Assembly: GCA_964016885.1 (NCBI GenBank) | Contig: OZ024742.1 | Coordinates: 119,722,001-119,786,000 of the forward strand | Length of the DNA: 64,000 nucleotides | Reading direction: 5' to 3' | Source of the DNA: Eledone cirrhosa | Lineage: Eukaryota | In this document: positions 1 to 58,797 of the stretch, piece after piece | Numbering within the stretch: the stretch's first letter is position 1 | Layout of the letters: each line of letters opens with the position of its first letter | Made by a program: the position numbers and the translations under genes | The notes under the pieces: model-generated | Told to the model about the DNA's origin: nothing | The model's input: the letters and a program-made list of their open reading frames with translations, nothing else | The model's database searches: none

Positions 1-928
1 CTTGAGGCAAGAGTGATTGTCTTGTTCGCATAGGACTGTCTGGCAGGTTTTCTACAGTTGGATGCCCTTCCTAACACCAACCACATTTACAGTGTGGGAC
101 TGGGAGGTTTTTGCCGTGTTGCCTACACGGCCACATTACAGCGTGGACTGTGTGTTTTTTTGTCATGACACTTACACGATCTCATTTGTTTCGGCCTGGA
201 TGGTGTGGCACCAACATAACTTTACATAGAACGGGGTGGTGTGGATGAGGTGGGGGTGGTGGGACGGGGGGGGGGTATTTTGTTAGAGATGCCTACTGGC
301 TGTAGTAGGTTTTACTATGTATTTAGGTAAGGCGGGTCTTCTCTGTTACTGAGTACCGCCAAAGGTCTCGGTCCAGTGACATTGTCTTGGAGAGGTGTAA
401 GTGTGTGAGGTCGGAGTTTATCAGCTCGTCCCAGGTTTTTCTAGGTCTGCCTATTCCGTGGCTACCGTCTATCTTTATTGCCCTGCACTTTGTTATACAG
501 CTATCGACTTTCATGCGCATCACGTGTCCATACCAACGTAGCCTTCTCTCGAGTAAACAACATCTGATCCCTCTTATTTCTAATTTTTTCCTTAGTTCGT
601 TTATGCTTTGCCGTTCACGTATATTACTGTTACACATCCAGCGGAGCATGCAAGCTTCGTTTCTCTCTAGTCTGCGTATATCCTCTGCACACAATGCCCA
701 GGTCTCACTGCCATGCAACATTGCTGTTCGTATGCAGTCATCGTACAACCTGCCTTTCATTTTTAGGGAGAACCCTTTAGCAGCTAATAGTGGTATAAGC
801 TCTCTGAACTTTTTCCAACCAGTTCTGACTCTAGCTACTGTACTTTCAGAGCACCCTCCCCCACTGCTGATTTTATCACCCAGGTAACGGAAATTGTCCA
901 CTATTTCTATTGAACCCTCTGCGCAATG
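1..928 (-). mobile_element. RTE-clade LINE 3' fragment (family A)
   Basis: ORF 323-901: FRYLG...WKKFREL...MLHGSETW...LRWYGHV...GRPRKTW, the RTE post-RT C-terminus; 3' UTR runs off window start. Confidence 0.92.
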
Positions 929-1171
929 ATATATATATATATATAGTGTGTATATATATATATATATAGTGTATATATATATTGTATATATATATATATG
1001 TATATATAGTCTAACTCTCTAGCCCACTAAATATTAACACTTCGAATATTTAATACTGCCGGCACTAGTATCTAGCACCTTTGGCATACGCTACTTGGCA
1101 AATAACTATATGTATCACCTATCCCCCCTTTTTTTCTCGATACGTAAATACTATATAGTATATATATATAT

Positions 1172-2079
1172 AAGCTAACTAAGAACATAGATTTTACATG
1201 TGGCCGGTGTTCTGGGGCAATAAGTAGCAGCAAGTGCCACAAAATACTAGCTCTTTCAACTGCGCAGAGGGTTCTATAGAAATAATGGACAGCTTCCGTT
1301 ACCTGGGTGACAAAATCAGCAGTGGGGGGAGGGTGCTCTGAAAGTACAGTAGCTAGAGTCAGAACTGGGTGGAAAAAGTTCAGAGAGCTTATACCACTAT
1401 TAGCCGCTAAAGGGTTCTCCCTAAAAATGAAAGGCAGGCTGTACGGTGCCTGCATACGAACAGCAATGTTGCATGGCAGTGAGACCTGGGCATTGTGTGC
1501 AGAGGATATACGCAGACTAGAGAGAAACGAAGCTTGCATGCTCCGCTGGATGTGTAATAGTAATATACGTGAACAACAAAGCATAAACGAACTAAGGAAA
1601 AAATTAGAAATAAGAGGGATCAGATGTTGTTTACTAGAGAGAAGGCTACGTTGGTATGGTCACGTGATGCGCATGAAGGACGATAGCTGTATAACAAAGT
1701 GCAGGGCAATAAAGATAGACGGTAGCCACGGAATAGGCAGACCCAGAAAAACCTGGGACGAGCTGATAAACTCCGACCTCACACACTTACACCTCACCAA
1801 GACAATGTCACTGGACCGAGACCTTTGGCGGTACTCAGTAATAGAGAAGACCCGCCTTACCTAAATACAAAGTAAAACCTACTACAGTCAGTAGGCATCT
1901 CTAACAAAATACACCCCGTCCCACCACCCCCAACCCATCCACACCGCCCCCTTCTATGTAAAGTTATGTTGGTGCCACGCCATCCAGGCCGAAACAAATG
2001 AGATCGTGTAGGTGTCACGACAAAAAAACACACAGTCCACGCTGGAACACGGACGTTAAACGTTGATGATGATGATGAT
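1172..2079 (+). mobile_element. RTE LINE 3' fragment (family A), inverted relative to 1-928
   Basis: ORF 1307-1864 nearly identical to 323-901; ends in (GAT)n tail. Confidence 0.92.
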
Positions 2080-2119
2080 ATATAGTGTATATATATATAG
2101 TGTGTATATATATATATAG

Positions 2120-2211
<92 letters not shown>

Positions 2212-2421
2212 TATATATATATATATATATAGTTTTTAAAATCCAACGCCAATAAATACACCAGGATTTTTTCATTCTGATGATTGAAAGCAAAATTTTT
2301 TTGCTTTTAAGAAACCACTGGTAAATGAAATAATTGCCTTATGTTGTTTATTACATCACTATATAGTGTATATATATATAGTGTATATATATATATATAT
2401 ATAGTGTATATATATATATAT

Positions 2422-2456
<35 letters not shown>

Positions 2457-2460
<4 letters not shown>

Positions 2461-3263
2461 CAATGCTGCATGGCAGTGAGACCTGGGCATTGTGTGCAGA
2501 GGATATACGCAGACTAGAGAGGAACGAAGCTTGCATGCTCCGCTGGATGTGTAACAGTAATATACGTGAACGGCAAAGCATAAACGAACTAAGGAATAAA
2601 TTAGAGATAAGAGGGATCAGATGTTGTTTACTCGAGAGAAGGCTACGTTGGTATGGACACGTGATGCGCATGAAAGTCGATAGCTGTATAACAAAGTGCA
2701 GGGCAATAAAGATAGACGGTAGTCACGGAATAGGCAGACCTAGAAAAACCTGGGACGAGCTGATAAACTCCGACATCACACACTTACACCTCTCCAAGAC
2801 AATGTCACTGGACCGAGACCTTTGGCGGTACTCAGTAACAGAGAAGACCCGCCTTACCTAAATATATAGTAAAACCTACTCCAGCCAGTAGGCATCTCTA
2901 ACAAAATACACCCCGTCCCACCACCCCACCCCCCACCCGATCCACACCACCCCGTTCTATGTAAAGTTATGTTGGTGCCGCGCCATCGAGGCCGAAACAA
3001 ATGAGATCGTGTAGGTGTCACGACAAAAAAACACACAGTCCACGCTGTAATGTGGCCGTGTAGGCAACACGGTAAAAACCTCCCAGACCCACACTGTAAA
3101 TGTGGTTGGTGTTAGGAAGGGCATCCAACTGTAGAAAACCTGCCAGACAGTCCTATGCGAGCAAGACAATCACTCTTGCCTCAAGTGGGACTACCCCCGT
3201 CCAAACCCATGCAAGCGTGGAACACGGACGTTAAACGTTGATGATGATGATGATGATGATGAT
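2457..3263 (+). mobile_element. RTE LINE 3' fragment (family A) with complete 3' UTR
   Basis: ORF 2463-2861, UTR and (GAT)n tail. Confidence 0.92.
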
Positions 3264-3329
3264 ATATATATATAAATGGAATAGAATGAACGAAATTTCA
3301 TTTCTCACTCTTAGTACGGCACTTACTTA

Positions 3330-5577: not shown

Positions 5578-7583
5578 CAAGCGATGGAATGAGACATACA
5601 GGAAGGTGTGGAGAAGAAAGGTCTGGAAGCTAAAAGACCTTTCACTAAAATACAAATTTAGGAAAGCCCTTCAAAATGTGTATGACGAAAAAGAAGACGA
5701 TTTAGAGACGTATGGCATAGATAATAACTGGAATTTCTGACGTGACAACTTACTGCAGGCTACTGATGAAACTTGTGGCTAGAGCAGAGCTCCAACCAGA
5801 CAGAGAGTGACCTGGTGGTGGAACAGCACAGTAAATAAGGCCATTAGAGACAAAAGACTAGCATGGAAGGCTTGGAAAAATGGTGGGAGTAGGGAAGGAT
5901 ATACAGCCGCTAAGAGAGAAGCTAGACATCAGGTGTACTTAGCACGCAGGGTGGCTGAGAGTAGGAGGTTTGCCAATATTCTGCGACGGGAAGATCAGAG
6001 GCGTGTGGTGTTCCACATTGCAAGGCAGTGTATCAATGCAAATCAGGATGTTGTTGGAGATAAATGTGTCCGGAATGATGCTGGTGTACTTAGTGTCACG
6101 AATGATCAGAAAAAGGAGGCCTGGAAATGTCATTATGAGAGACTGATGAATGTGGAGAAGGAATGGGAGAGAGAGAAATTACTCTCAGTATATCTGACAG
6201 AGGGACCAGCTATTGCGATTGATGAATATAGGGTCCAAGAGATGATTAAGGAAATGAAAAATGGTATGGCTGCTGGACCATCGGGGATAGTTGCTGAGAT
6301 GCTGAAGGCATCAGGGGATGTAGGCACTAAACTGGTTGCATGCATCATCAATCAGGCTATATATGGTGGTGTCATACCCAAAGACTGGTGCAGCAGTATT
6401 CTCATAAATTGCTACAAAGGTAAAGAGGATGCTCTGGAGATGAGCAATTATAGGGGTATAAAGCTGATGGATCAGGTTATGAAAGTGGCAGAAAGGATAT
6501 TAGCACAACTAATTAGAGAAAGGGTCAAACTAGATGAGATGCAGTTTGGTTTTGTGCCTGGGAAGAGTACAACAGATGCCCTCTTCTTGGTGAGACAATT
6601 ACAAGAGAGGTTCTTAGAGAAAAATAAGCCACTATACTAAGCCTTTGTTGACCAAGAGAAGACCTTTGATAGGGTACCCCGATCTGTCATCTGGTGGTCC
6701 CTAAGGAAACTAGGTGTTAAAGAATGGCTTGTGAGGACAGTGAAAACTCTGTACAGAGGTACTGTCAGTAAAGTCAGACTAGGAATGGAGTTTATTGAGG
6801 AATTCCAGGTATAAGTAGGAATACAGCAAGGTTTGGTCCTCAGCCAGCTCTTGTTCATTATAGTCCTCCAAGCCATAATAGAGGAGTTTAAGACTGGCTC
6901 TACATGGGAACGTCTCTATGCTAACGATCTGGTTCTATTAGCAGAATCAGTAGAGGAGCTAGAGAATAATTCTGGCTATGGAAACAGCAGTTGAAAGTGT
7001 TGATGAGTAGAAAAGAGGACAAAACTCTGATTCCGTCAGGGAAATGGCCATGTTCGATATGCAGAAAAGGAACTGGCATAAATTCTATAAAATGCACACA
7101 ATGCAGATCCTGGGTACACAAGAGATGTAGCGGGATGGCAGGCAAACTAACAGGTAGGGAGAAATATGTATGCAGTAGATGTACAGGGAAATTAGACAGT
7201 AGAAGTCGCATTGATAGACACATTTTTCAAATGCAGGCGGGTGCTATAGAAGTGGTGGATAGCTTCCGGTACCTAGGAGATCAGATTGGCATTGGAGTGG
7301 GGTGTTTTGAGGCCATAGTATCTAGAATAAGGATGGGTTGGAAGAAGTTTAGGGAGCTGCTGACGAAGAAGAGTTTCTCTCTGCGTACTAAAGGCCAGTT
7401 ATATGATGCATGTGTGAGGAGTGTGATGCTGCATGGTAGTGAGACATGGGCAGCAACTGCAGAGGATATGCAACGGCTGGAGAGAAATGAGGCAAGCATG
7501 CTCCGTTGGATGTGCATGTCAATGTGTGTGAACGACCCAGCTTGAATGTGTTGAGAGAGAAACTGTGTCTGAGAGGGATAGAA
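5578..7583 (+). mobile_element. RTE LINE (family B) internal fragment with disrupted reverse transcriptase
   Basis: TWWWN, NYRGIKL, QFGFVPGKSTTDA, degenerate YA(N)D, Cys/His finger, FRYLGD; several in-frame stops. Confidence 0.92.
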
Positions 7584-7595
7584 TGATGATGATGA

Positions 7596-7651
<56 letters not shown>

Positions 7652-7802
7652 ATACTTTGGGAGGGTCATGTTGCCAATAAGAAACACACGCACCAGTTGC
7701 TTTCACTTCAATTTAATTTATTATATATTTATAAATTTACAAATTTATAAATTTCTGGTTGGTTGGTTGGTTCCACAACCAGATAGTTGTTTATATATAT
7801 AT

Positions 7803-7847
7803 AGTCATAGTTCTTTCGTCACACACTCTGTGACCTCTTCAGTGACT
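7803..7847 (-). ncRNA. Mirror copy of the minimal hammerhead motif
   Basis: Exact reverse complement of 7971-8015. Confidence 0.65.
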
Positions 7848-7970
7848 GGGGATTTCTTTCTTCGTTTCTGTGCCTTTCTTTTCTTCTATCCTACGCCATT
7901 TTGAAAATGGCGTAGAAAATGCCGTAGGATAGAAGAAAAGAAAGGCACAGAAACGAAGAAAGAAATCCCC

Positions 7971-8015
7971 AGTCACTGAAGAGGTCACAGAGTGTGTGAC
8001 GAAAGAACTATGACT
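7971..8015 (+). ncRNA. Minimal type I hammerhead ribozyme motif
   Basis: agtca-CTGAAGA-g-gtcaca(gagtg)tgtgac-GAAA-g(aa)c-TA-tgact: stem I agtca/tgact, 6-bp stem II, vestigial stem III, CUA cleavage triplet at 8008-8010. Confidence 0.65.
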
Positions 8016-8373
8016 ATATATATATAAACAACTATCTGGTTGTGGAACCAACCAACCAACCAGAAATTTATAAATTTGTAAATTTATAAATATATAATAA
8101 ATTAAATTGAAGTGAAAGCAACTGGTGCGTGTGTTTCTTATTGGCAACATGACCCTCCCAAAGTATAACAATATCGGTTTCAACACACGATTTCAGATAA
8201 AGAATCTTGCTAAACAAATTCAGAAACGAAATATATATATAAATATATATATATATTATATGATATATATATATATATATTATATGATAGTAATAATAAT
8301 AAAATGGAGACTAAAATCCAAAGAGGGCTCGATAAGGAAAATATATATCAAATATATAAGAACCGTAGAGCAA

Positions 8374-8869
8374 ATATTTATTAAAATAACAGATTAAAGT
8401 CTAAGCAAAGAATCGCTGCTTTCACCCTTAACGGGATCTTCTGAAACTAACAAAGTCAATCTGTAAACGCAGAACTGGATATTTCAAAAAACGTTGCAAC
8501 CGGAGGAAGACAGGAAGACGATACTTTGGTTCGTGGAAACGTTCGTTCATTGCCAGAGAACGTCTCTATGCACCACCTAAGAGAACATTAGTCTCTGACA
8601 TCTTTTATACCATAAACGTGGTTCTGTCTTTGCGCGTAATTGTTTTTCACCGCTCCTATTAATGACGTATTATTCGTTTTTTCCTGTTCTTTGCCAGCGA
8701 ACGTTTCCACGAACCAAAGTATCGTCTTCCTGTCTTCCTCCGGTTGCAACGTTTTTTGAAATATCCAGTTCTGCGTTTACAGATTGACTTTGTTAGTTTC
8801 AAAAGATCCCGTTAAGGGTGAAAGCAGCGATTCTTTGCTTAAACTTTAATCTGTTATTTTAATAAATAT
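8374..8869. repeat. Inverted repeat, about 172-bp arms (8374-8545, 8698-8869) around a 152-bp spacer
   Basis: Arms reverse-complementary with two mismatches seen. Confidence 0.9.
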
Positions 8870-8977
8870 ATATTATATGATATATATATATATATATTAT
8901 ATGATATATATATATATATATTATATGATATATATATATATATATATTATATGATATATATATATATATATATTATA

Positions 8978-10468: not shown

Positions 10469-10535
10469 TGATATCATAATATATATATATATTATGATAT
10501 CATAATATACATATATTATATACATATTATTATAC

Positions 10536-11363
10536 CTAAAAATGAAAGGCAGGTTGTATGATGCCTGCATACGAACAGCAATGTTGCATGGCAGTGAGAC
10601 CTGGGCATTGTGTGCAGAGGATATACGCAGACTATAGAGGAACGAAGCTTGCATGCTCCACTGGATGTGTAATAATAATATACGTGAATGGCAAAGCATA
10701 AACGAACTAAGGAAAAAATTAGAAATAAGAGGGATCAGATGTTGTTTACTCGAGAGAAGGCTACGTTGGTATGGTCACGTGATGCGCATGAAAGACGACA
10801 GCTGTATAACAAAGTGCAGGGCAATAAAGATAGATGGCAGCCACGGAGTCGGCAGACCCAGAAAAACCTGGGACGAGCTGATAAATTCCGACCTCACACA
10901 CTTACACCTCTCCAAGACAATGTCACTGGACCGAGATCTTTGGCGGTACTCAGTAATAGAGAAGACCCGCCTTACCTAAATACAAAGTGAAACCTACTAC
11001 AGTCAGTAGGCATCTCTAACAAAATACATCCCCGTCTCACCACCCCTACCCCATCCACACCGCCCCTTTCAATGTAAAGTTATGTTGGTGCCACACCATC
11101 CAGGCCGAAACAAATGAGATCGTGTAGGTGTCACGACAAAAAAACACACAGTCCACGCTGTAATGTGGCCGTGTAGGTAACACGGTAAAAACCTCCCAGC
11201 CCCACACTGTAAATGTGGTTGGTGTTAGGAAGGACATCCAGCTGTAGAAAACCCGCCAGGCAGTCCTATGCGAGCAATGACAACCACTCTTGCCTCAAGT
11301 GGGAAAACCCCCGTCCAAACCCATGCAAGCGTGGAACACGGACGCTAAACCTGATGATGATGA

Positions 11364-11367
<4 letters not shown>
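10536..11367 (+). mobile_element. RTE LINE 3' fragment (family A)
   Basis: ORF 10653-10979 plus full UTR and (GAT)n. Confidence 0.92.
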
Positions 11368-11405
<38 letters not shown>

Positions 11406-11423
11406 TATATATATATATATATA

Positions 11424-11492
<69 letters not shown>

Positions 11493-11744
11493 GTTGCTTA
11501 ACCACAATAACTACTTTTCTTAACAAGGCTAAAAATTTAAATGCGTGTTTACTAAAAATGCATACAACCATAAGTCTGCCCCACAACTATCCCCACTTTC
11601 TCTAAATATATAAATATATATATAATATATCATATAACATTATATAATATATATATGTTATGTTATATAATGTGTATATATTAGATAATATAATATATAT
11701 ATATATAATATATGAAAATGTGTACCAGCAATAGCTGGAGATTT

Positions 11745-11862
11745 AACCCTGTGAAGGACTGGCGTCCTGTCCAGGGGGGAGTCTTGTACTCTCAGTCGCT
11801 TCAAGCCATGAAACCGGGATAAGCACCGGCCATATGAGCTTTCTGGCTTAAGACAGACTTTA
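11745..11862 (+). mobile_element. 3' part of a SINE
   Basis: aaccctgtgaaggactggcgtcctgtccagggg...gaaaccgggataagc resembles a widespread invertebrate SINE body; a related minus-strand relic lies near 28990-29260. Confidence 0.5.
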
Positions 11863-11870
11863 GAATTTAG

Positions 11871-12580
11871 ATCATCATCATCATTTTACGTCTGCTCTTC
11901 CTGCTTGCAAGGTTGGGACGGCTCTTATTCAGCACAGCATCTCTCCACTTGTCATGGTCCTTCATCATCTCCACTGTGAGATTCAGCGATCTGAGATCTG
12001 TTCTCACCACCTCCGCCCATTTTTCGTGGTCTACCTCTACCACGTCTTCCTTCAACTGGCATTTCCTGGCACTTCTTCACCCATCGGTCATCCTCCATGC
12101 GCATCACATGTCCATACTACCTCAGTCTCCTCTCCCGTACACTACATTCTATCCCTCTCAGACACAGTTTCTCTCTCAACACATTCATGCTGGGTCGTTC
12201 ACTGCACATCCAACGGAGCATGCTTGCCTCATTTCTCTCCAGCCGTCGCATATCCTCTGCAGTTGCTGCCCATGTCTCACTACCATGCAACATCGTGCTC
12301 CTCACACAGGCATCATATAACCGGCCTTTCATACCCATAGAGAAACCCTTCTTCGTCAGCAAGGAAGCAGCTCCCTAATCTTCTTCCAACCCATCCTTAT
12401 TCTAGACACAATGGTCTCGGAACCCCCCCCCCCCTCCCATGCTAATCTTATCTCCTAGGTACCGGAAGCTATCCACCACTTCTATAGCACCCGCCTGCGT
12501 TTGAAAAATGTGTCTATCAATGCGACTGCTACTGTCTAATTTCCCTGTACATCTACTGCATACATATTTCTCCCTACCTG

Positions 12581-12582
<2 letters not shown>
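11871..12582 (-). mobile_element. RTE LINE (family B) 3' fragment
   Basis: Close reverse complement of about 7154-7583, continuing to a (GAT)n tail. Confidence 0.9.
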
Positions 12583-12635
<53 letters not shown>

Positions 12636-12835
12636 TGTAATATATATATTATATATATATATTCTAATATATGTATATTATAATATATATATATATATCA
12701 TCTAATATATATATATATTATATAATATATATATCATCTAATATATATATATATTATATAATATAATATATATTATATGATATATATATATTATATAATA
12801 TATATATATATCATATAATATATGTATATTATAAT

Positions 12836-13147
12836 ATCATCATTTTACGTCCGCTTTTCCCTGCTTGCAAGGGTGGGACGGGAACTGATTCTGGCTTGAT
12901 TTCTACAGCTGGATGCCCTTCCTAACACCAACCTCATTTACAGTGAGTGCTGGGTGCTTTTTTGCCGTGGCACCTCCACGGCCACTTTGCAGTGGAATGA
13001 TAGGGAACCCAGTCCTATCATCTCATTTCTACAGCTGAGTAAACTGGAGCAATCTGAAATAAAGTGTCTTGCTCAAGGAAACAACACATCACCCAGTCTG
13101 AGAATTGAACTCACAATCTTTCGATTCCAAGGCCAATGCTCTAACCA
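12836..13147 (-). mobile_element. tRNA-derived SINE with RTE-type tail
   Basis: Near-identical to 58461-58797. Confidence 0.85.
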
Positions 13148-13230
13148 ATAATATATATATTGCAAGGCCAATGTTCTAACCAATAATCTATATATTATAT
13201 TATATATATATATATTATATATATTATATC

Positions 13231-13405
13231 AAGACATTTCGGATAAACATCCTACATCCGGATATGTCTCCATAAAAAATAATTCTCTACTTGAGTGGGC
13301 CATGGTGTCCAAATCCTGATTTGAAAGACTTTACCAGGTGGTGCTATTAAGTTAGACGTGGCCTGGGCCAATACTGGCCGAAACCTATCAAAGTTATCAA
13401 AGTTA
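13231..13405 (+). mobile_element. 3' tail of CR1-like LINE
   Basis: Matches 3' ends at about 48220-48390 and 56120-56295. Confidence 0.75.
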
Positions 13406-13560
13406 TATAATATATATATATATATAGAGAGATGACATTGTAGTGCTTAAATTAAATACATTGCTAATGCTTGAATTGTTATGCAAATTAGGACAGACTA
13501 ATATAGTTTTAACTAAGTTTGTACATAATATAAATAGCTATAAGCTACTATACTCTTTGT

Positions 13561-14722
13561 CATCATCATCATCATCATCATCATCACCGTTTTACGTCCG
13601 TTCTTCCACGCTAGCATGGGTTAGATGGGTTGTCCTGTTGTGGGCAGTGTCTGGTCGGCTGACCATGCCTTGCTCATACAGGAACTGATTTGGCTTGATT
13701 TCTACAGCTGGATGCCCTTCCTAACACCAACCTCATTTACAGTGAGTGCTGGGTGCTTTTTCGTGGCGCCTACACGTCCACTTTACAGTGTGGGCTGGGT
13801 GCTTTTTTGCTGTGGCACCTCCACGACCACCTTGCGGTGTGGGGGCATATTGTCTATATGCTTCAGCTTGTACCCATGGGAGGTCGGGTACTCTGTATTA
13901 CTGCGTGACGCCAGAGGTCACGGTCGTGTGTCATCACCTTTGAGAGGTGTAATTGGGTAAGGTCAGCTTTTATCACCTCATCCCAGGTCATCTTGGGTCT
14001 CCCCACTTCGCGGTTTCCATCGACTTCTAGTGCTCTGCACCTTTTTATGCAGCTGTCATCCTTCATACGCATCACATGTCCATACCAGTGCACACGCCTC
14101 TCCTGCACACAGCATTTGATTCCTCTTATGCTTAGTCTCTCTCTCAATTCATTTATGCTTTGCCGTTCACGTATATTACTGTTACACATCCATCGGAGCA
14201 TCCAGGCATCATTTCTCTCTAATCTATGTAAGTCTTCCACCTTCAGCGCCCAGGTCTCACTACCATGCAACATCGCTGTTCGGATACACGCATCATACAG
14301 TCTGCCTTTCATTTTGAGGGTGAAGCCTTTTGCAGCTAGCAGTGGTAGTAGTTCCCTAAACCTCTTCCATCCCGTTCTTACCCTAGTTATTGTACTTTCT
14401 AAACACCCACCTCCGCTGCTAATTCAGTCACCTAGGTAGCAGAAGCTGTCTACTGTTTCTACAGAGCCCTCCCAGAGATTGGTGGTACTTGTTTCCTGTG
14501 GCTGTTTGCTGCTTGCTGTCCCAGCACAGCTGCTGCATGTGAAGCCTACATTCTTAATTAAGCTTCCTGAGATCCCGCTACATCTCTTGTGTACCCATTG
14601 TTTGCATTTGGGGCAGAGAATGGAGTTCCTACCTACACCTTTCCTACATACTGAGCAAGCCCATTTCCATGAGGGGATCTGGGTTCTGTTTTCTCGTCTA
14701 CTTACAAGGACCTTAGTCTTTG
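13561..14722 (-). mobile_element. RTE LINE 3' fragment (relative of family A)
   Basis: ORFs 14424-14834 (Cys/His finger, FCYLGD) and 13863-14312; UTR and tail. Confidence 0.9.
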
Positions 14723-17070
14723 TGCTCCGAGAAATTAACAACAGACCTGATAAAGAATTAAAAGTGCTAAATTTAGGTTGATATGTTTCTAGTTGCCAAA
14801 AGAAAAAGATGTATTTATTAAAAAGCACCCACACTGTTAAGTCATACTTTACCCAAAAGAAACACTGTAGTGCTCTGTTTGTACATATAAATATATTATT
14901 AATTGAAGAAAAAACACTGGATACATGATATAGTTTAAGTTTATTGTGAAAGATGGCAGAAAAATTCAGTAATCATGGGTTTTTATGCAGTGACTCCGTG
15001 GGCAGTTGAAGAAAGTACCCACTTTTTTAGTGGACTTTTATAACATGCTGGGATATGGTATGCCTTTTCTCAACTGGATACATACAGAAATCTCTGCGAA
15101 AACTCTTACTGGCTATTATAAAAATCATACTTTCAGTAGTGACTCTTTAAGCTCACTAAGCTCTTAAGTGACTTTTAGAAGACCTTACAAATAAAGCTGA
15201 ATATGTGCATTTTTTTCCTGCTTGGTGGGATCTCCTTTCTGTAGCATCATCTGATGGTGGCATTCACTTGCCAATTGTAAAATTAATTTCAGATATTGGA
15301 TAGCAGCTTTTTGCAATCAACCAATTATTGGATAATGTTTCAGATAACAAAAAATAGAAGAGAAAATGTCAACAGACACATGAGCTACTTTTAATCATGA
15401 TGAAGTTTGACATAGGAATAATTATATCGTAGGATCAAGTATTACATCATTTTCAAATGACTAGTGTTTCTTTACTATCTTCTGTCCAAGAATTGAATAC
15501 AGCTTGTGCAGTCTGTGGATATATTCAAACAATGTGGTTTATTTTTTCAGACATTGAGCTAAAAGCCCAAAGCTCTTATTTTAAAGACCAACACCACTCT
15601 TGAAGTAAAATCATGAGTATGATGATTTCACAGGTTCCAGGACCCTCAATTCACTTATTAACTCTCAAATGCCTTTTTAGAAGTTGAAAAGCAAATAATT
15701 TGTTTTGCCATTATTTATTGCTTCCTATGAACGGTGTATTTGGTTTCCTTCATCAATTATAGGTAATTACACCAGAACAATTATAAAGAGGCAATCAAAT
15801 CATGTGAATTATAAAAAGTTTTAGTGAAGAATTTGTGCTTTTAACTCAACTAAAAAAAAAAAATTATCTTTCTTTTCATATTGGCAACAAATAATATCTT
15901 ATAGAGTTACAGTTTCACTATTCTATAACTGAACATTTTTGGAGTCTTCTTTTCCAAAGGACCCCTTTAGAATATATGCTACAACTCATGAAGTAACTGG
16001 TCTTCAAGATCAGATTAAGCTATTTAATGACCAGATTAAGCTATTGCTGGGCCTTTTAGTTGTTCTTTCAACAAAGATTGAATGTTTCACAAATGTATTT
16101 CCTAGGGCAAGCACAAATGTGCAATGGCTTATAGATGTAGAAATATAATCCATGAGAATTTGGCTTTAGCAATATGTGAAACTATGTTGCAGTCATCTGT
16201 ATAAATGATATCTCAGATAAGAGATTGAAAGACTTCCACATCGACAGTGAAATACTGCATATTGAAGAGGTGACCAGAAAATCAGTAGCTCACATATATC
16301 TCAGAAGAGCGATCAGCAGCAAAAGGATGTACAAAAAATAATTGTATTTTCTTGCTTTCACACTACATGCACACACATATGTATGCTTACACACATAAAC
16401 AAGTGTTTAACTTTAAGGATAGGATATGTTTGTTAATTCTCTTGGGTATATTTATACTACTCAAGTTTATCACTGACTGCAAAGCCCATGCCATGCAGCT
16501 CATAAGCCTTTGATCTGAGTCTTTGTTAGTGATGTGTTAATGCTTCTTTTTTTCATCCTGACCTGGAGTCAACCAATCTTGTCTTCAGTGAGGCAGCAAT
16601 GTCTATATTGTCAATAATCACCATTTCTCTGATATTACTTGGCTGTTATAAATTAGTGTTAAGTCTACGATACATTTTCTGATATTCCAAATCCCCTAAT
16701 TGAGTGGGGTTGATCTTCTTTGTTTCTGAGTATTCAATTTGTTTGATGTTTGGTTGATTTACCTCATGTTCAAATACTTGAGGCAGGTAGAAACTGATTA
16801 AGGTAAATTAAAAGATGTTCTCACTATATGAGTTGGCCTGCAGTGCATTGTTTAAAGGTCAATTTAAGAAGATTTATTGTTTATGACAATCCCTCCTTTG
16901 TTGATTTCATGCTTCCTATGTATAGATTAGTTACAAATGAATGAGAAAGTCAATACATTTAAAAATTAAACACAGATGGATTGGTAATGTCTGTATCTCT
17001 CTACTCCAGGCGTGGGGAAGAGGCCTGTGCAAATGTGTAGCTGTGAGAGGTCATTATTTTGAAGGAGACA

Positions 17071-44409: not shown

Positions 44410-47317
44410 GACTCCTGGAATTCTGTAACCTAACTATCTGTAACACAAACTTCAAAAAATGAGAAAACCACTTGATCACCTATAGATCAGGGGAACATGC
44501 CAGTCAGATAGATTATATCCTTACTAGAAGATGTGACAAAGTGTCTGTTGTAAACATTAAATCCCTCCCCTGTGAAGAAGGCACCTCTCAACATAGGCTA
44601 GTAGTTAGTGACCTCATAGTCAGGAATAGATGTACTCGACGACAAAGGAGGCCTACCTTGAGGAGGAGAATATGGAAGTTGAAGGACCCCATAGCCAGTG
44701 ACAAATTTAAAAGCTTATTACTTGATGCCTTTGACAATAAGGAAGAGCAATTAGAGACGTGCAATATAGAGGAACAGTGGGAATTCTTGAAAGTGAACCT
44801 GCTGAAAGCAACGGATGAAATCTGTGGCTGGAGCAGACCTATTGGCAGGAGGAGGGTAACTTGGTGGTGGAACAGTAAGGTGGAGGAGACAATCAAGGCC
44901 AAAAAGCAGGCTTGGAAAGTATGGAAGGATGGGGGAAGTAGAGAGAACTATCAAGTGGCCAAGAGAGAAGGTAGGAGACAAGTGTACCTTGCAAAAAGTG
45001 AAGCAGAGGATAGAAAGTTCAAGCATGTTCTACAACATGAGGACCAAAAACGTGGGGTGTTCAGGATTGCTAGACAATGTGCCAAGGAAAACCGTGATAT
45101 TGTCGGGGAGAAGTGTATATGTAATGATAACAGTGTACTTGCAATCACTGATACTGATAAGAAGATAGCCTGGAAGTGTCACTACGAGAGACTATTAAAT
45201 GAGGAGAATAAATGGGAAAAAGATAGTCTGCCCCAAATCGATCCAGTAGAATGACCAGCGGTGCAAGTTAAAGGTAGTATAATAAGTAAGGCAATCAAAG
45301 ATATGAAGACAGGTAAGGTAGCTGGGCCTTCGGAGGTGGTTCCTAAGATGTTGAAGGCATCTGAAATGGTAGGACATACTATGGTCACCTGTATAGTTAA
45401 CCAAGTAATACAGAATGGGGTCATACCAAAAGACTGGCGTAGCAGCAGCCTCATTAACTGTTACAAGGGTAAAGGGATGCTCTAGATAGGGGATACTATA
45501 GAAGCATTAAGTTAGTTGACCAGGTCATGAAGGTCACAGAAAGAGTTATAGCGCAACTAATCAGAGAGCGAATTGATCTAGATGAAATGCAGTTTGGGTT
45601 TGTGTCAGGTAAAAGTACTACAGACGCTCTTTTCCTTGTACGACAACTACAGGAGAAGTACCTAGCTAAAAGTAAACCCCTCTACTTAGCTTTTGTAGAC
45701 CTGGAGAAAGCCTTTGACAGAGTACCCCACTCCATTATCTGGTGGGCTCTTAGAAAACTAGGTGTAGATGAATGGCTTGTGAGAGCTATGCAAGCTATGT
45801 ATAAAGAAACAGTCAGTAAGGTTAGAATTAACAATGGATATTGTTAAGAATTTAGTGTAAAAGTTGGTGTTCATCAAGGCATGGTCCTTAGCCCCCTCCT
45901 ATTTATTATTGCCCTTCAGGCTATAACAGAGGAGCTCAAGACTGGCTTCCCCTGGGAACTCCTATATGCTGATGATCTAACGCTCATAGCTGAATCTATG
46001 GCTGAACTAGAGAAGAAATTTGAAACATGGAAGCATGGCCTAGAATCAAAAGGCCTTAAAGTTAACTTGTCTAAGACTAAAATTCTAGTTTGTAGAAAGG
46101 AAAATAGGGCACAGGTGCCCTCAGGGAAATGGCCATGCTCAGTATGTAGAAAAGGAGTAGGCAGAAATTCCATTTTATGTCCCAAATGCAAATTATAGGT
46201 ACATAAAAGATGTAGTGGGATCACAGGTAAACTATCTAAGAACATAGACTCTATATGTGGCCGATGCTCAGATGCAATAAGTAGCAAGTGCCTACAGGAT
46301 ACTAGCTCCTTCTATTGCCCAGATGGTTCTATAGAAATAGTGGACACTTTCCATTACCTGGGTGACGAAATCAGCAGTGGTGGAAGGTGTTCAGAATGGG
46401 ATGGAAAAAGTTCAGAGAGCTTATACCGCTGTTGGCCACAAAAGGTTTCTCTCTAAAAATGAAAGGCAGATTGTATGATCCCTGTATACGAACAGCAATG
46501 CTCATGGCAGTGAGACATAGGCATTGCGTGCAGAGGACCTGCGCAGACTGGAAAAGAATGAAGCATGCATGCTCCGCTGGATGTGTAATAATATTATACA
46601 TGAACGGCAAAGCATAAATGAACTAAGTGAGAAATTAGGAATAAGAGGGATCAGATGCTGTTTACTTGAGAGAAGACTACGTTGGTATGGTCACGTGATG
46701 CGCATGAAGGACGACAGCTGTATAAAAAAGTGCAGGGCGATCAAAATTGATGGAAGTTACGAAGTAGGTAGACCCAGAAAAACCTGGGATTTGATAAATT
46801 CCGACCTTACACACTTGCACCTCTCAATGTCACTGGCCCTCAATGTCACTGGACCGAGATCTTTGGCGCTACACAATAATACAGAAGACTCACCTTACCT
46901 ATATACAAAGTGAAACCCACAGTCAGTAGGCACCTCTTAACCAAATATACACCCCAATCCACTACCCCTACCCTATCCTCCCACTCCCACCAACACCACC
47001 CCCTCTCTGTAAAGTTGGTACCACAACATCCAGTTCAAATAAATGAGATGATCAAGATTGTGTAGGTGTCACGACAAAAAAACACACAGTCCACGCTGTA
47101 ATGTAGCCGTGTAGGTAAAACGGTAAAAAGTTCCGCCAATGTGGTTGGTGTTGGGAAGGGCATCCAGCTGTAGAAAACCTGCCAGATAGTCCTATATGAG
47201 CGAGACACGGTCACCCGACCAACCTTGCCTCAAGTGGGACAACTCCCGTCTAACCCATGCTAGCGTGGAAGATGGACGTTAAACGAAGAGGATGAAGATG
47301 ATGATGATGATGATGAT
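44410..47317 (+). mobile_element. Longest RTE LINE copy (family A): end of APE endonuclease, RT, PHD-like finger, C-terminus, 3' UTR; inactivated
   Basis: SQIDYIL, SQHRLVV, QFGF, FVDLEKAFD, LSPLLF, LYADDL, CSVC..CPKC, GRPRKTW; stops and frameshifts; (GAT)n tail. Confidence 0.95.
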
Positions 47318-47391
47318 ATATATATATGAGTGTACTATAGGTTTGGTAGAAATATTCCAGTGTAAGAGCACTCAGTCCATAGGATAAGTTA

Positions 47392-52755: not shown

Positions 52756-52887
52756 ATATAGACATACTCAATGGATTAGGATGGTCAGCACAACTTGATA
52801 AAGTTTTTGAAGAGAATTACAGAAAAAATAATAAGTTGCTGTGGCAGTATTTTGGAAGCCAAAGTGGCTTTATGAGAATGTATCCTG
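52756..52887 (+). CDS. CACNA2D: Calcium channel alpha-2/delta subunit, exon A (132 bp, phase 1-1)
   Basis: tttacag acceptor, gtaaat donor; translates (D)IDILNGLGWSAQLDKVFEENYRKNNKLLWQYFGSQSGFMRMYP, matching the alpha-2/delta motif LN.L.W...LD.VF..N......L.WQ.FGS..G..R.YP. Confidence 0.95.
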
Positions 52888-58460: not shown

Positions 58461-58797
58461 CATCATCATCATCATTTTACGTCCGCTTTTCCCTGCTTGC
58501 AAGGGTGGGACGGGAACTGATTCTGGCTTGATTTCTACAGCTGGATGCCCTTCCTAACACCAACCTCATTTACAGTGAGTGCTGGGTGCTTTTTTGCCGT
58601 GGCACCTCCACGACCACTTTACAGTGGAATGATAGGGACCTCAGTCCCTATCATCTCATTTCTACAGCTGAGTAAACTGGAGCAATGTGAAATAAAGTGT
58701 CTTGCTCAAGGAAACAACACATCACCCAGTCTGAGAATTGAACTCACAACCTTTCGGTTGCAAGCCCAATGCTCTAACCACTAAGCCATGTGCCTCC
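58461..58797 (-). mobile_element. Full-length tRNA-derived SINE with RTE-derived 3' tail
   Basis: Minus strand: A box tggcttagtgg, B box gagttcaattc, hairpin tgatagggac-tgag-gtccctatca, tail ggtgttaggaagggcatccagctgtagaaa...(GAT)n shared with RTE LINEs. Confidence 0.9.

Follow-up and report, generated by a model that had tools for sequence, protein, structure and literature searches.

The window, the whole stretch of 64,000 nucleotides of Eledone cirrhosa DNA analysed here, contains an exon that encodes a VWA_N domain of the calcium-channel alpha2-delta type. Another VWA_N match, less strong at E 0.13, is found 49 kb to the left of the window (L168 318-451), and the splice donor of that exon and the acceptor of the exon in the window join in phase, as consecutive exons. 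The intron between them is approximately 101.8 kb long, and a large palindrome lies 56.7 kb from one of its ends and 44.6 kb from the other. A preliminary description of this DNA had placed the palindrome in an ion-channel intron. The intronic location holds, but the host gene encodes the alpha2-delta auxiliary subunit and not the pore of the channel.

Beyond this exon, Pfam searches of 340 reading frames from the window yielded mainly LINE-type reverse transcriptase (RT) and PHD fragments. LINE-type fragments carrying an RT and a C-terminal PHD finger, several of them arranged as inverted pairs, are located at positions 1-3300, 5680-7585, 10500-14970 and 44460-47330. A tRNA-like match above the Rfam cut-off lies on the minus strand at 58727-58790 within a repeated element and is probably a SINE head.

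The features of the palindrome, its surroundings and the host exon are the following (pLTR, pseudo-LTR).

7600..7643, no strand: (TA)n target tract to the left of the insertion, seen in the sequence; a target-site duplication is indistinguishable inside the tract
7644..7903, minus strand: inverted pLTR arm without tail (element -1 to +259), 100% identical to the 3' pLTR of the full-length copy L031
7803..7847, minus strand: mirror copy of the minimal hammerhead, from sequence and descriptor match
7904..7915, plus strand: junction, a 12-nt copy of the first bases of the arm followed by a restart with G>C at 7922, seen in the sequence
7916..8174, plus strand: pLTR arm (element +1 to +259), 99.7% identical to the 5' pLTR of L031
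7971..8015, plus strand: minimal type I hammerhead motif, from sequence, descriptor match, fold of the isolated motif and variation among 245 copies; cut predicted after A8010
8149..8234, plus strand: ATG and first 28 codons of the element ORF, matching the N-terminus of the L031 and L051 ORFs
8175..8234, plus strand: 60-nt tail (element +260 to +319) on this arm only, from comparison with element copies
8235..8289, no strand: TA-rich target tract to the right, seen in the sequence
52756..52887, plus strand: host exon, VWA_N of the calcium-channel alpha2-delta type, matching alpha2-delta-1 (E 7e-8)

As previously described, the assembly sequence holds a near-perfect palindrome, with arms of 259 bp each (7644-7902 and 7916-8174), a single mismatch (7896/7922) and a 13-nt centre. 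Pairing of the arms ends at 7643/8175, and position 7922 is the sole rare variant across both arms. The centre holds a perfect 12-bp mini-hairpin, and positions 7904-7915 read as an abortive 12-nt copy of the start of the arm. This junction has one match genome-wide, meaning that it is unique in the assembly. The allele at position 7939 (element +24) is present in approximately 2% of raw reads from other samples, yet it occurs at 23 of 85 loci here, which were chosen by likeness to the window. Possibly, this allele marks a very recent sublineage.

The hammerhead letters noted earlier are also confirmed, including those of the mirror copy. Stem I consists of 5 bp (AGUCA/UGACU), and the core is formed by CUGAAGA at 7976-7982 (C3 to A9) and GAAA at 8001-8004. 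An extra G (nucleotide 9.1) at 7983 precedes the 6-bp stem II (GUCACA/UGUGAC), which begins with the G10.1-C11.1 pair. Stem III is very short, with a G-C pair (15.2-16.2) that closes a 2-nt AA loop and with U16.1 and A17 at 8009 and 8010. The minimum free energy fold of an isolated 51-mer contains stems I and II, with a z-score relative to shuffled sequences of only -1.1. Rfam hammerhead models, including the Hammerhead_1 type suggested in the preliminary description, gave no match at E<=1 across the whole window or at E<=10 across 7940-8060. Rfam microRNA matches to the window hairpin are sub-threshold and caused by the hairpin itself, and a microRNA reading was rejected.

A young Penelope-like parent element

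The palindrome most probably represents both ends of one insertion, with two pLTRs of a young Penelope-like retrotransposon arranged head to head. The preliminary description had recognized an inverted Penelope-like pLTR with a minimal type I hammerhead, and this assignment is borne out by the pLTR identity and by the ORF of the parent element. The genome-wide copy search that it had proposed reveals full-length copies and a tandem array with an open ORF that has RT and GIY-YIG matches. The window arm matched 56 places, most of them with 98-100% identity (40 scored of 146 candidates). Exact copies in the genome number 5,206 for a 33-mer from the hammerhead and 24,983 for a 27-mer near the outer (3') end of the arm. 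A pattern for short head-to-head palindromes (<=60 nt between arms) has 397 matches with varied centres, a few loci being counted twice. Given the numbers of hammerhead 33-mers and short-palindrome matches, the window locus alone is an ordinary retroelement stub, and the information lies in the family.

The full-length copy L031 has direct pLTR repeats 4,312 bp apart and is preceded by a truncated copy; its ORF is broken by a stop codon and a frameshift. A tandem array has a spacing of 4,423 bp, and the start of the ORF lies within the pLTR. In L051 the ORF is open and encodes 1,319 amino acids, with an RVT_1 match below the Pfam cut-off (E 2.6e-5; 24.5 bits compared to 29.6) and a GIY-YIG match above it (E 5.4e-5). 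A Pfam search with the whole L051 ORF gave no match, and a PDB search with the element ORF gave only a weak homing-endonuclease match (E 0.27). The Atlas neighbours of the element ORF carry RVT_1, HTH_animal and GIY-YIG. In the N-terminal half of the L051 ORF, the frame is kept open by long asparagine/histidine-rich repeats that resemble the N-rich inserts of Adineta Penelopes.

The full element carries, immediately upstream of +1, what we take to be ETS-, NRF1- and YY1-like motifs. We infer a transcription start near -10, in a stretch that is mostly missing from the window stub. Tracts of (TA)>=5 are present on both flanks of 60 of 78 head-to-head units. Units in unique DNA (L033, L044, L097, L240) show 12-13-nt target duplications, and that of the window unit is masked by (TA)n. 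A CX4CxxC linker is visible in the L051 ORF, and the Neptune clade is reported to combine a CX2-5CxxC linker before a CCHH-type GIY-YIG domain with (TA)n targets (PMC8557442). The linker and the targets point to membership of this clade.

Two other classes of mobile element were considered and rejected. A MITE or DNA transposon does not fit the unequal ends created by the tail, the variable centres and a sequence that is the end of a retroelement. A non-LTR retrozyme would be a non-autonomous element with short tandem hammerhead repeats, whereas the window arms are head to head and the parent is autonomous.

Other repeats share some of these features. Directly to the right of the palindrome, positions 8290-8870 belong to another abundant family of repeats (1,228 candidates; L127-L137) with the same geometry, in which head-to-head arms with two alternative outer ends approximately 95-100 nt apart are located in TA tracts. 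This family carries a hammerhead-like CAGAAGA...GAAA sequence with a non-standard core. A relaxed descriptor also detects other, sequence-unrelated hammerhead-like motifs in L030/L033, L032, L074 and L076.

Sister copies with probable RNA-editing marks

Two loci in the untargeted sample show dense A>G changes in the element-sense orientation. With a hypermutated locus defined as one having at least nine A>G or at least six T>C changes on an arm, ADAR-type hypermutation is present at 15 loci (L210, L211, L232, L248, L255, L256, L257, L259, L261, L263, L264, L265, L267, L272 and L273), a number that gives no frequency because most were obtained with targeted patterns. L259 is counted once together with its identical twin L260; the two are located approximately 10 kb apart on G000:C2 in opposite orientations and carry the same 19 A>G changes, reflecting either a duplication or one large inverted event.

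There are 17-49 A>G changes per edited arm, and the background in 259 copies is at most four rare A>G and at most three T>C changes. The 5' neighbour is rarely G (35 of 188) and the 3' neighbour is preferentially G (83 of 172). ADAR enzymes have this preference, with G depleted on the 5' side and enriched on the 3' side. The changes are almost confined to element positions -28..+253, which is the span of a short palindrome arm. This pattern likely results from RNA editing of the ADAR type.

The edited loci include two classes. In Class I, A>G changes are common to both arms: 30 of 30 in L210, 24 of 25-26 in L211, 12 of 12-15 in L263 and 17 of 24-26 in L267, these loci being distributed over G000 C1, C3 and C2. 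The overlap of A>G changes between loci has a median of 0.25 and a maximum of 0.46 (127 pairs). Sharing of sense A>G changes indicates that both arms go back to one sense RNA and argues against an antisense template, whereas the partial sharing in L267 counts against one RNA per insertion.

In Class II, an arm with A>G changes faces a partner with T>C changes, with respective counts of 17 and 28 in L255, 22 and 17 in L273, 17 and 6 in L248, 7 and 10 in L272, and 2 and 23 in L264. Weaker candidates are L269 (5 and 5) and L232. The simplest reading is that one hairpin RNA spanning the palindrome was likely edited on both strands and recopied whole. The tails of the tailed T>C arms of L264 and L248 have A>G and not T>C changes, as is predicted by a second priming on the sense tail, although the numbers are small. 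When the T>C arms are considered as antisense RNA, no clear preference for particular neighbours emerges (5' G 6 of 19, 3' G 10 of 32), and cDNA deamination within an RNA:DNA hybrid is a possible alternative. A strict T>C search pattern found one copy, which looked unedited, and a second pattern found six matches, four of them with clustered T>C changes.

The catalytic core is destroyed in several edited copies that were nevertheless inserted, indicating that insertion continues with a destroyed hammerhead core. The edit-marked sister copies as a whole also indicate that pLTR duplexes were edited in the germline. The preliminary description had proposed the hairpin as an ADAR substrate. This holds at the family level, where A>G and T>C changes are preserved as fossils, but not for the window copy, in whose arms no editing is seen. 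Penelope transcripts are reported to be heavily A-to-I edited in RNA reads from lizard and frog (PMC5625713, PMC10636886), and another report describes genomic G>A editing together with A>G in RNA traces (PMC2873906). No description of edit-marked inverted arms of Penelope-like elements (PLEs) was found in the largely open-access literature searched.

Formation of the palindromes and fate of the hammerhead

For the formation of inverted repeats and one-sided tails in PLEs, PMC3846280 proposes self-priming on antisense RNA, and the steps are called unresolved in PMC8557442 and PMC11167929. A young family with approximately 25,000 ends and edit-marked copies permits a direct genomic test of the template strand and of template number. 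Exactly one arm is tailed in 106 of 107 head-to-head loci, including the window locus; these loci were mostly chosen by best match or pattern and not at random. When 14 loci with unclear junctions are omitted, the remaining 93 comprise 40 with equal arms (within 3 nt), 28 with a longer tailed arm and 25 with a longer tail-less arm. This split indicates that neither arm is regularly copied from the other. Differences of at least 30 nt favour the tailed arm in 13 loci and the tail-less arm in 17, and loci at least 97% identical include only three such differences (two and one, respectively).

Other comparisons between the arms bear on the number of templates. The arms are discordant at common polymorphic sites in four loci (+24 in L003, L015 and L103; +48 in L093), which suggests that two templates are used at times. 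In L211, each arm carries sequence that is missing from the other. The nearest neighbour of an arm is its own partner in 12 cases, another locus in 28 and a tie in 45, so that ties predominate. On G000:C1, five places share one junction whose centre is a single nucleotide; this junction occurs with the tail on either side and may mark the 5' end of the RNA, perhaps with a cap-derived C.

We moderately prefer double priming on a single uncut sense RNA to a fold-back of the first cDNA. The element protein would cut both target strands 12-13 nt apart, and cDNA synthesis on that RNA would be primed at +319 by one target 3' end and at +259 by the other. The sequence at each site is AATAT|CG, which thus matches the TA target. 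Both cDNAs would extend to the RNA 5' end near -10 to +1, and their 3' ends would be joined by a template jump or by microhomology, in the window after a 12-nt false start. The anole PLE is reported to cut and extend both strands in vitro, with two internal start sites that bound the tail (PMC11167929). Because the promoter-like stretch upstream of -1 is missing from the window stub, the stub would be transcribed by host read-through only, and the read-through RNA would zip into a 259-bp duplex that serves as an ADAR substrate without cleavage. In the full proposal, in which we place about even confidence, palindromes finished by priming from opposite target strands would later give rise to transcripts that undergo editing on both strands and return to the genome as whole units. 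Such a second, non-autonomous life cycle would need no working ribozyme, and the clustered A>G changes would act as single-molecule barcodes for the making and recopying of hairpins.

Self-priming of the first cDNA to make the second arm, with later central deletions creating unequal arms, is possible but somewhat unlikely. This fold-back route accounts for the shared A>G changes, for private variants common to both arms (11 in 85 loci) and for the equal 5' ends in 40 of the 93 loci, and a perfect mini-hairpin is present in the centre of the window palindrome. When combined with central deletions it yields the same sequences as two primings, and it equally explains L210 because the long arm of that locus contains the tail. 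Strongly unequal young loci, moreover, are few. However, no tail can be copied from an arm that has none, and a short tailed arm cannot be the source of 5' sequence beyond its own end, so that in approximately one-quarter of loci simple fold-back has to be followed by deletions. It expects the tailed arm of solo palindromes never to be the shorter, yet this arm is the shorter in the 25 loci with a longer tail-less arm. Recurrent 1-nt-centre junctions would require a 1-nt loop, and fold-back by itself gives no account of the fixed stop at +259.

Two further routes fare considerably worse than two primings on sense RNA. Reinsertion of RNA transcribed from an older palindrome, which is seen in L255 and L273 and so exists in the family, is an improbable origin for the window copy; the window junction is unique in the assembly and both arms are unedited. 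Self-priming on an antisense template, as proposed in PMC3846280, is very unlikely to be the source of the head-to-head repeats. Arms with T>C changes show that antisense RNA can be copied, but most of these arms have an A>G partner, the arrangement expected from one hairpin RNA, and T>C changes were observed on both arms in no locus, whereas sense A>G changes on both arms in four loci place both on sense RNA.

The hammerhead appears to be maintained in the family. Among 245 copies, the minor-allele fraction is 0.009 in the core and 0.008 in the stems, compared to 0.060 in loops and N sites and 0.069 in the flank. The common variants are located in loop II, loop III and N17, sparing the core and stems. 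This distribution, resting on three variant sites and without compensatory pairs, suggests that the active element preserves the motif. The stem covariation raised in the preliminary description is absent, with no compensatory change in the 40 commonest motif variants of these copies, a family too young for a strong test.

Inserted copies appear to derive from uncut RNA. In a series of 90 copies (consecutive ends, one contig, untargeted), none has a 5' end at +85 to +99, around the cut site at +95, whereas 11 have one at -26 to +7, some far-upstream values being rough; the absence of ends at the cut site bears only on inserted templates. The anole PLE is likewise reported to insert in vitro without ribozyme cleavage (PMC11167929).

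The preliminary description had envisaged that RNA from the intron could change between a 259-bp duplex, in which the ribozyme is silenced, and a self-cleaving fold. Such a switch, taken here as one that would regulate the alpha2-delta transcript, is hardly tenable. The core is intact, the location is intronic and duplexes of the family are edited, but the whole hairpin is predicted at -490 kcal/mol and transcription of the plus strand produces the antisense arm first. The forced hammerhead fold is predicted to lie 70 kcal/mol above the duplex once the motif is complete and 76 kcal/mol above it afterwards. A self-duplex of stem III is not stable (+1.4 kcal/mol), with the AA loop leaving two A.A mismatches; GA is found instead in 32 of the 245 copies. 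Minimal hammerheads are reported to lack activity as monomers and to have little as dimers (PMC4209133), and that of the anole element to require the element protein (PMC11167929). Furthermore, editing strikes the catalytic core in sister copies, and the locus is a very young copy, one of approximately 400, situated 45-57 kb from either exon. The palindrome is predicted to be a trap instead of a switch, with the hammerhead a passenger locked in the hairpin.

A fold-back artefact of assembly is barely credible: the raw DNA reads (three reduced-representation runs and one contig set) contain the family at high depth and none of them bridges the window junction, an uninformative outcome, but the tail is one-sided, the mismatch private and the centre non-symmetric, and the short-palindrome matches elsewhere have varied centres, with target duplications around sister units.

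Comparison with known systems

In L1 twin priming, the two target strands prime on one RNA to create an inversion, and the cDNAs cover different parts of the RNA. In the Eledone family, by contrast, the two cDNAs would overlap and thereby produce a palindrome.

The window insertion unit appears to be that described for EN+ PLEs in PMC3846280 (Arkhipova et al. 2013). As reported there and in PMC8557442 (Craig et al. 2021), these elements share with the Eledone family a single ORF with RT and GIY-YIG domains, a pLTR that holds the ORF start, an inverted 5'-truncated copy with a one-sided tail, N-rich inserts in the ORF and a preference for (TA)n, and sister units of the window copy also show target duplication. 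The Eledone tail is 60 nt long, compared to 30-40 nt in those reports, and the one-tail rule is near absolute. The Eledone genome is also distinguished by its number of ends and its approximately 400 solo palindromes.

The metazoan minimal hammerheads of PLEs (Cervera and de la Pena 2014, PMC4209133) are similar in their core, in the nucleotide between 9 and 10.1, in the G10.1-C11.1 pair, and in having a long helix II, a short helix I and a vestigial helix III. The extra nucleotide and minimal stem III are described in that report as standard traits, and it already documents opposite-strand pairs separated by 100-700 bp. The low variation of the Eledone motif resembles that reported for D. virilis. 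The window motif, a putative ribozyme, differs in that loop 3 (AA) is not palindromic.

Hyper-edited Penelope and palindromic-repeat RNAs (Porath et al. 2017, PMC5625713; Xenopus, PMC10636886) are reported from RNA reads, whereas the changes in the Eledone family are fixed in the genome on one or both arms. Further parallels come from in vitro work on the Anolis Poseidon element PAc (Frangieh et al. 2024, PMC11167929), which likewise has two internal start sites bounding the tail, an AT-rich target and a ribozyme dispensable for insertion. The main text of that report does not treat inverted arms; the proposal made here is that each start site would be used once per insertion, from opposite target strands.
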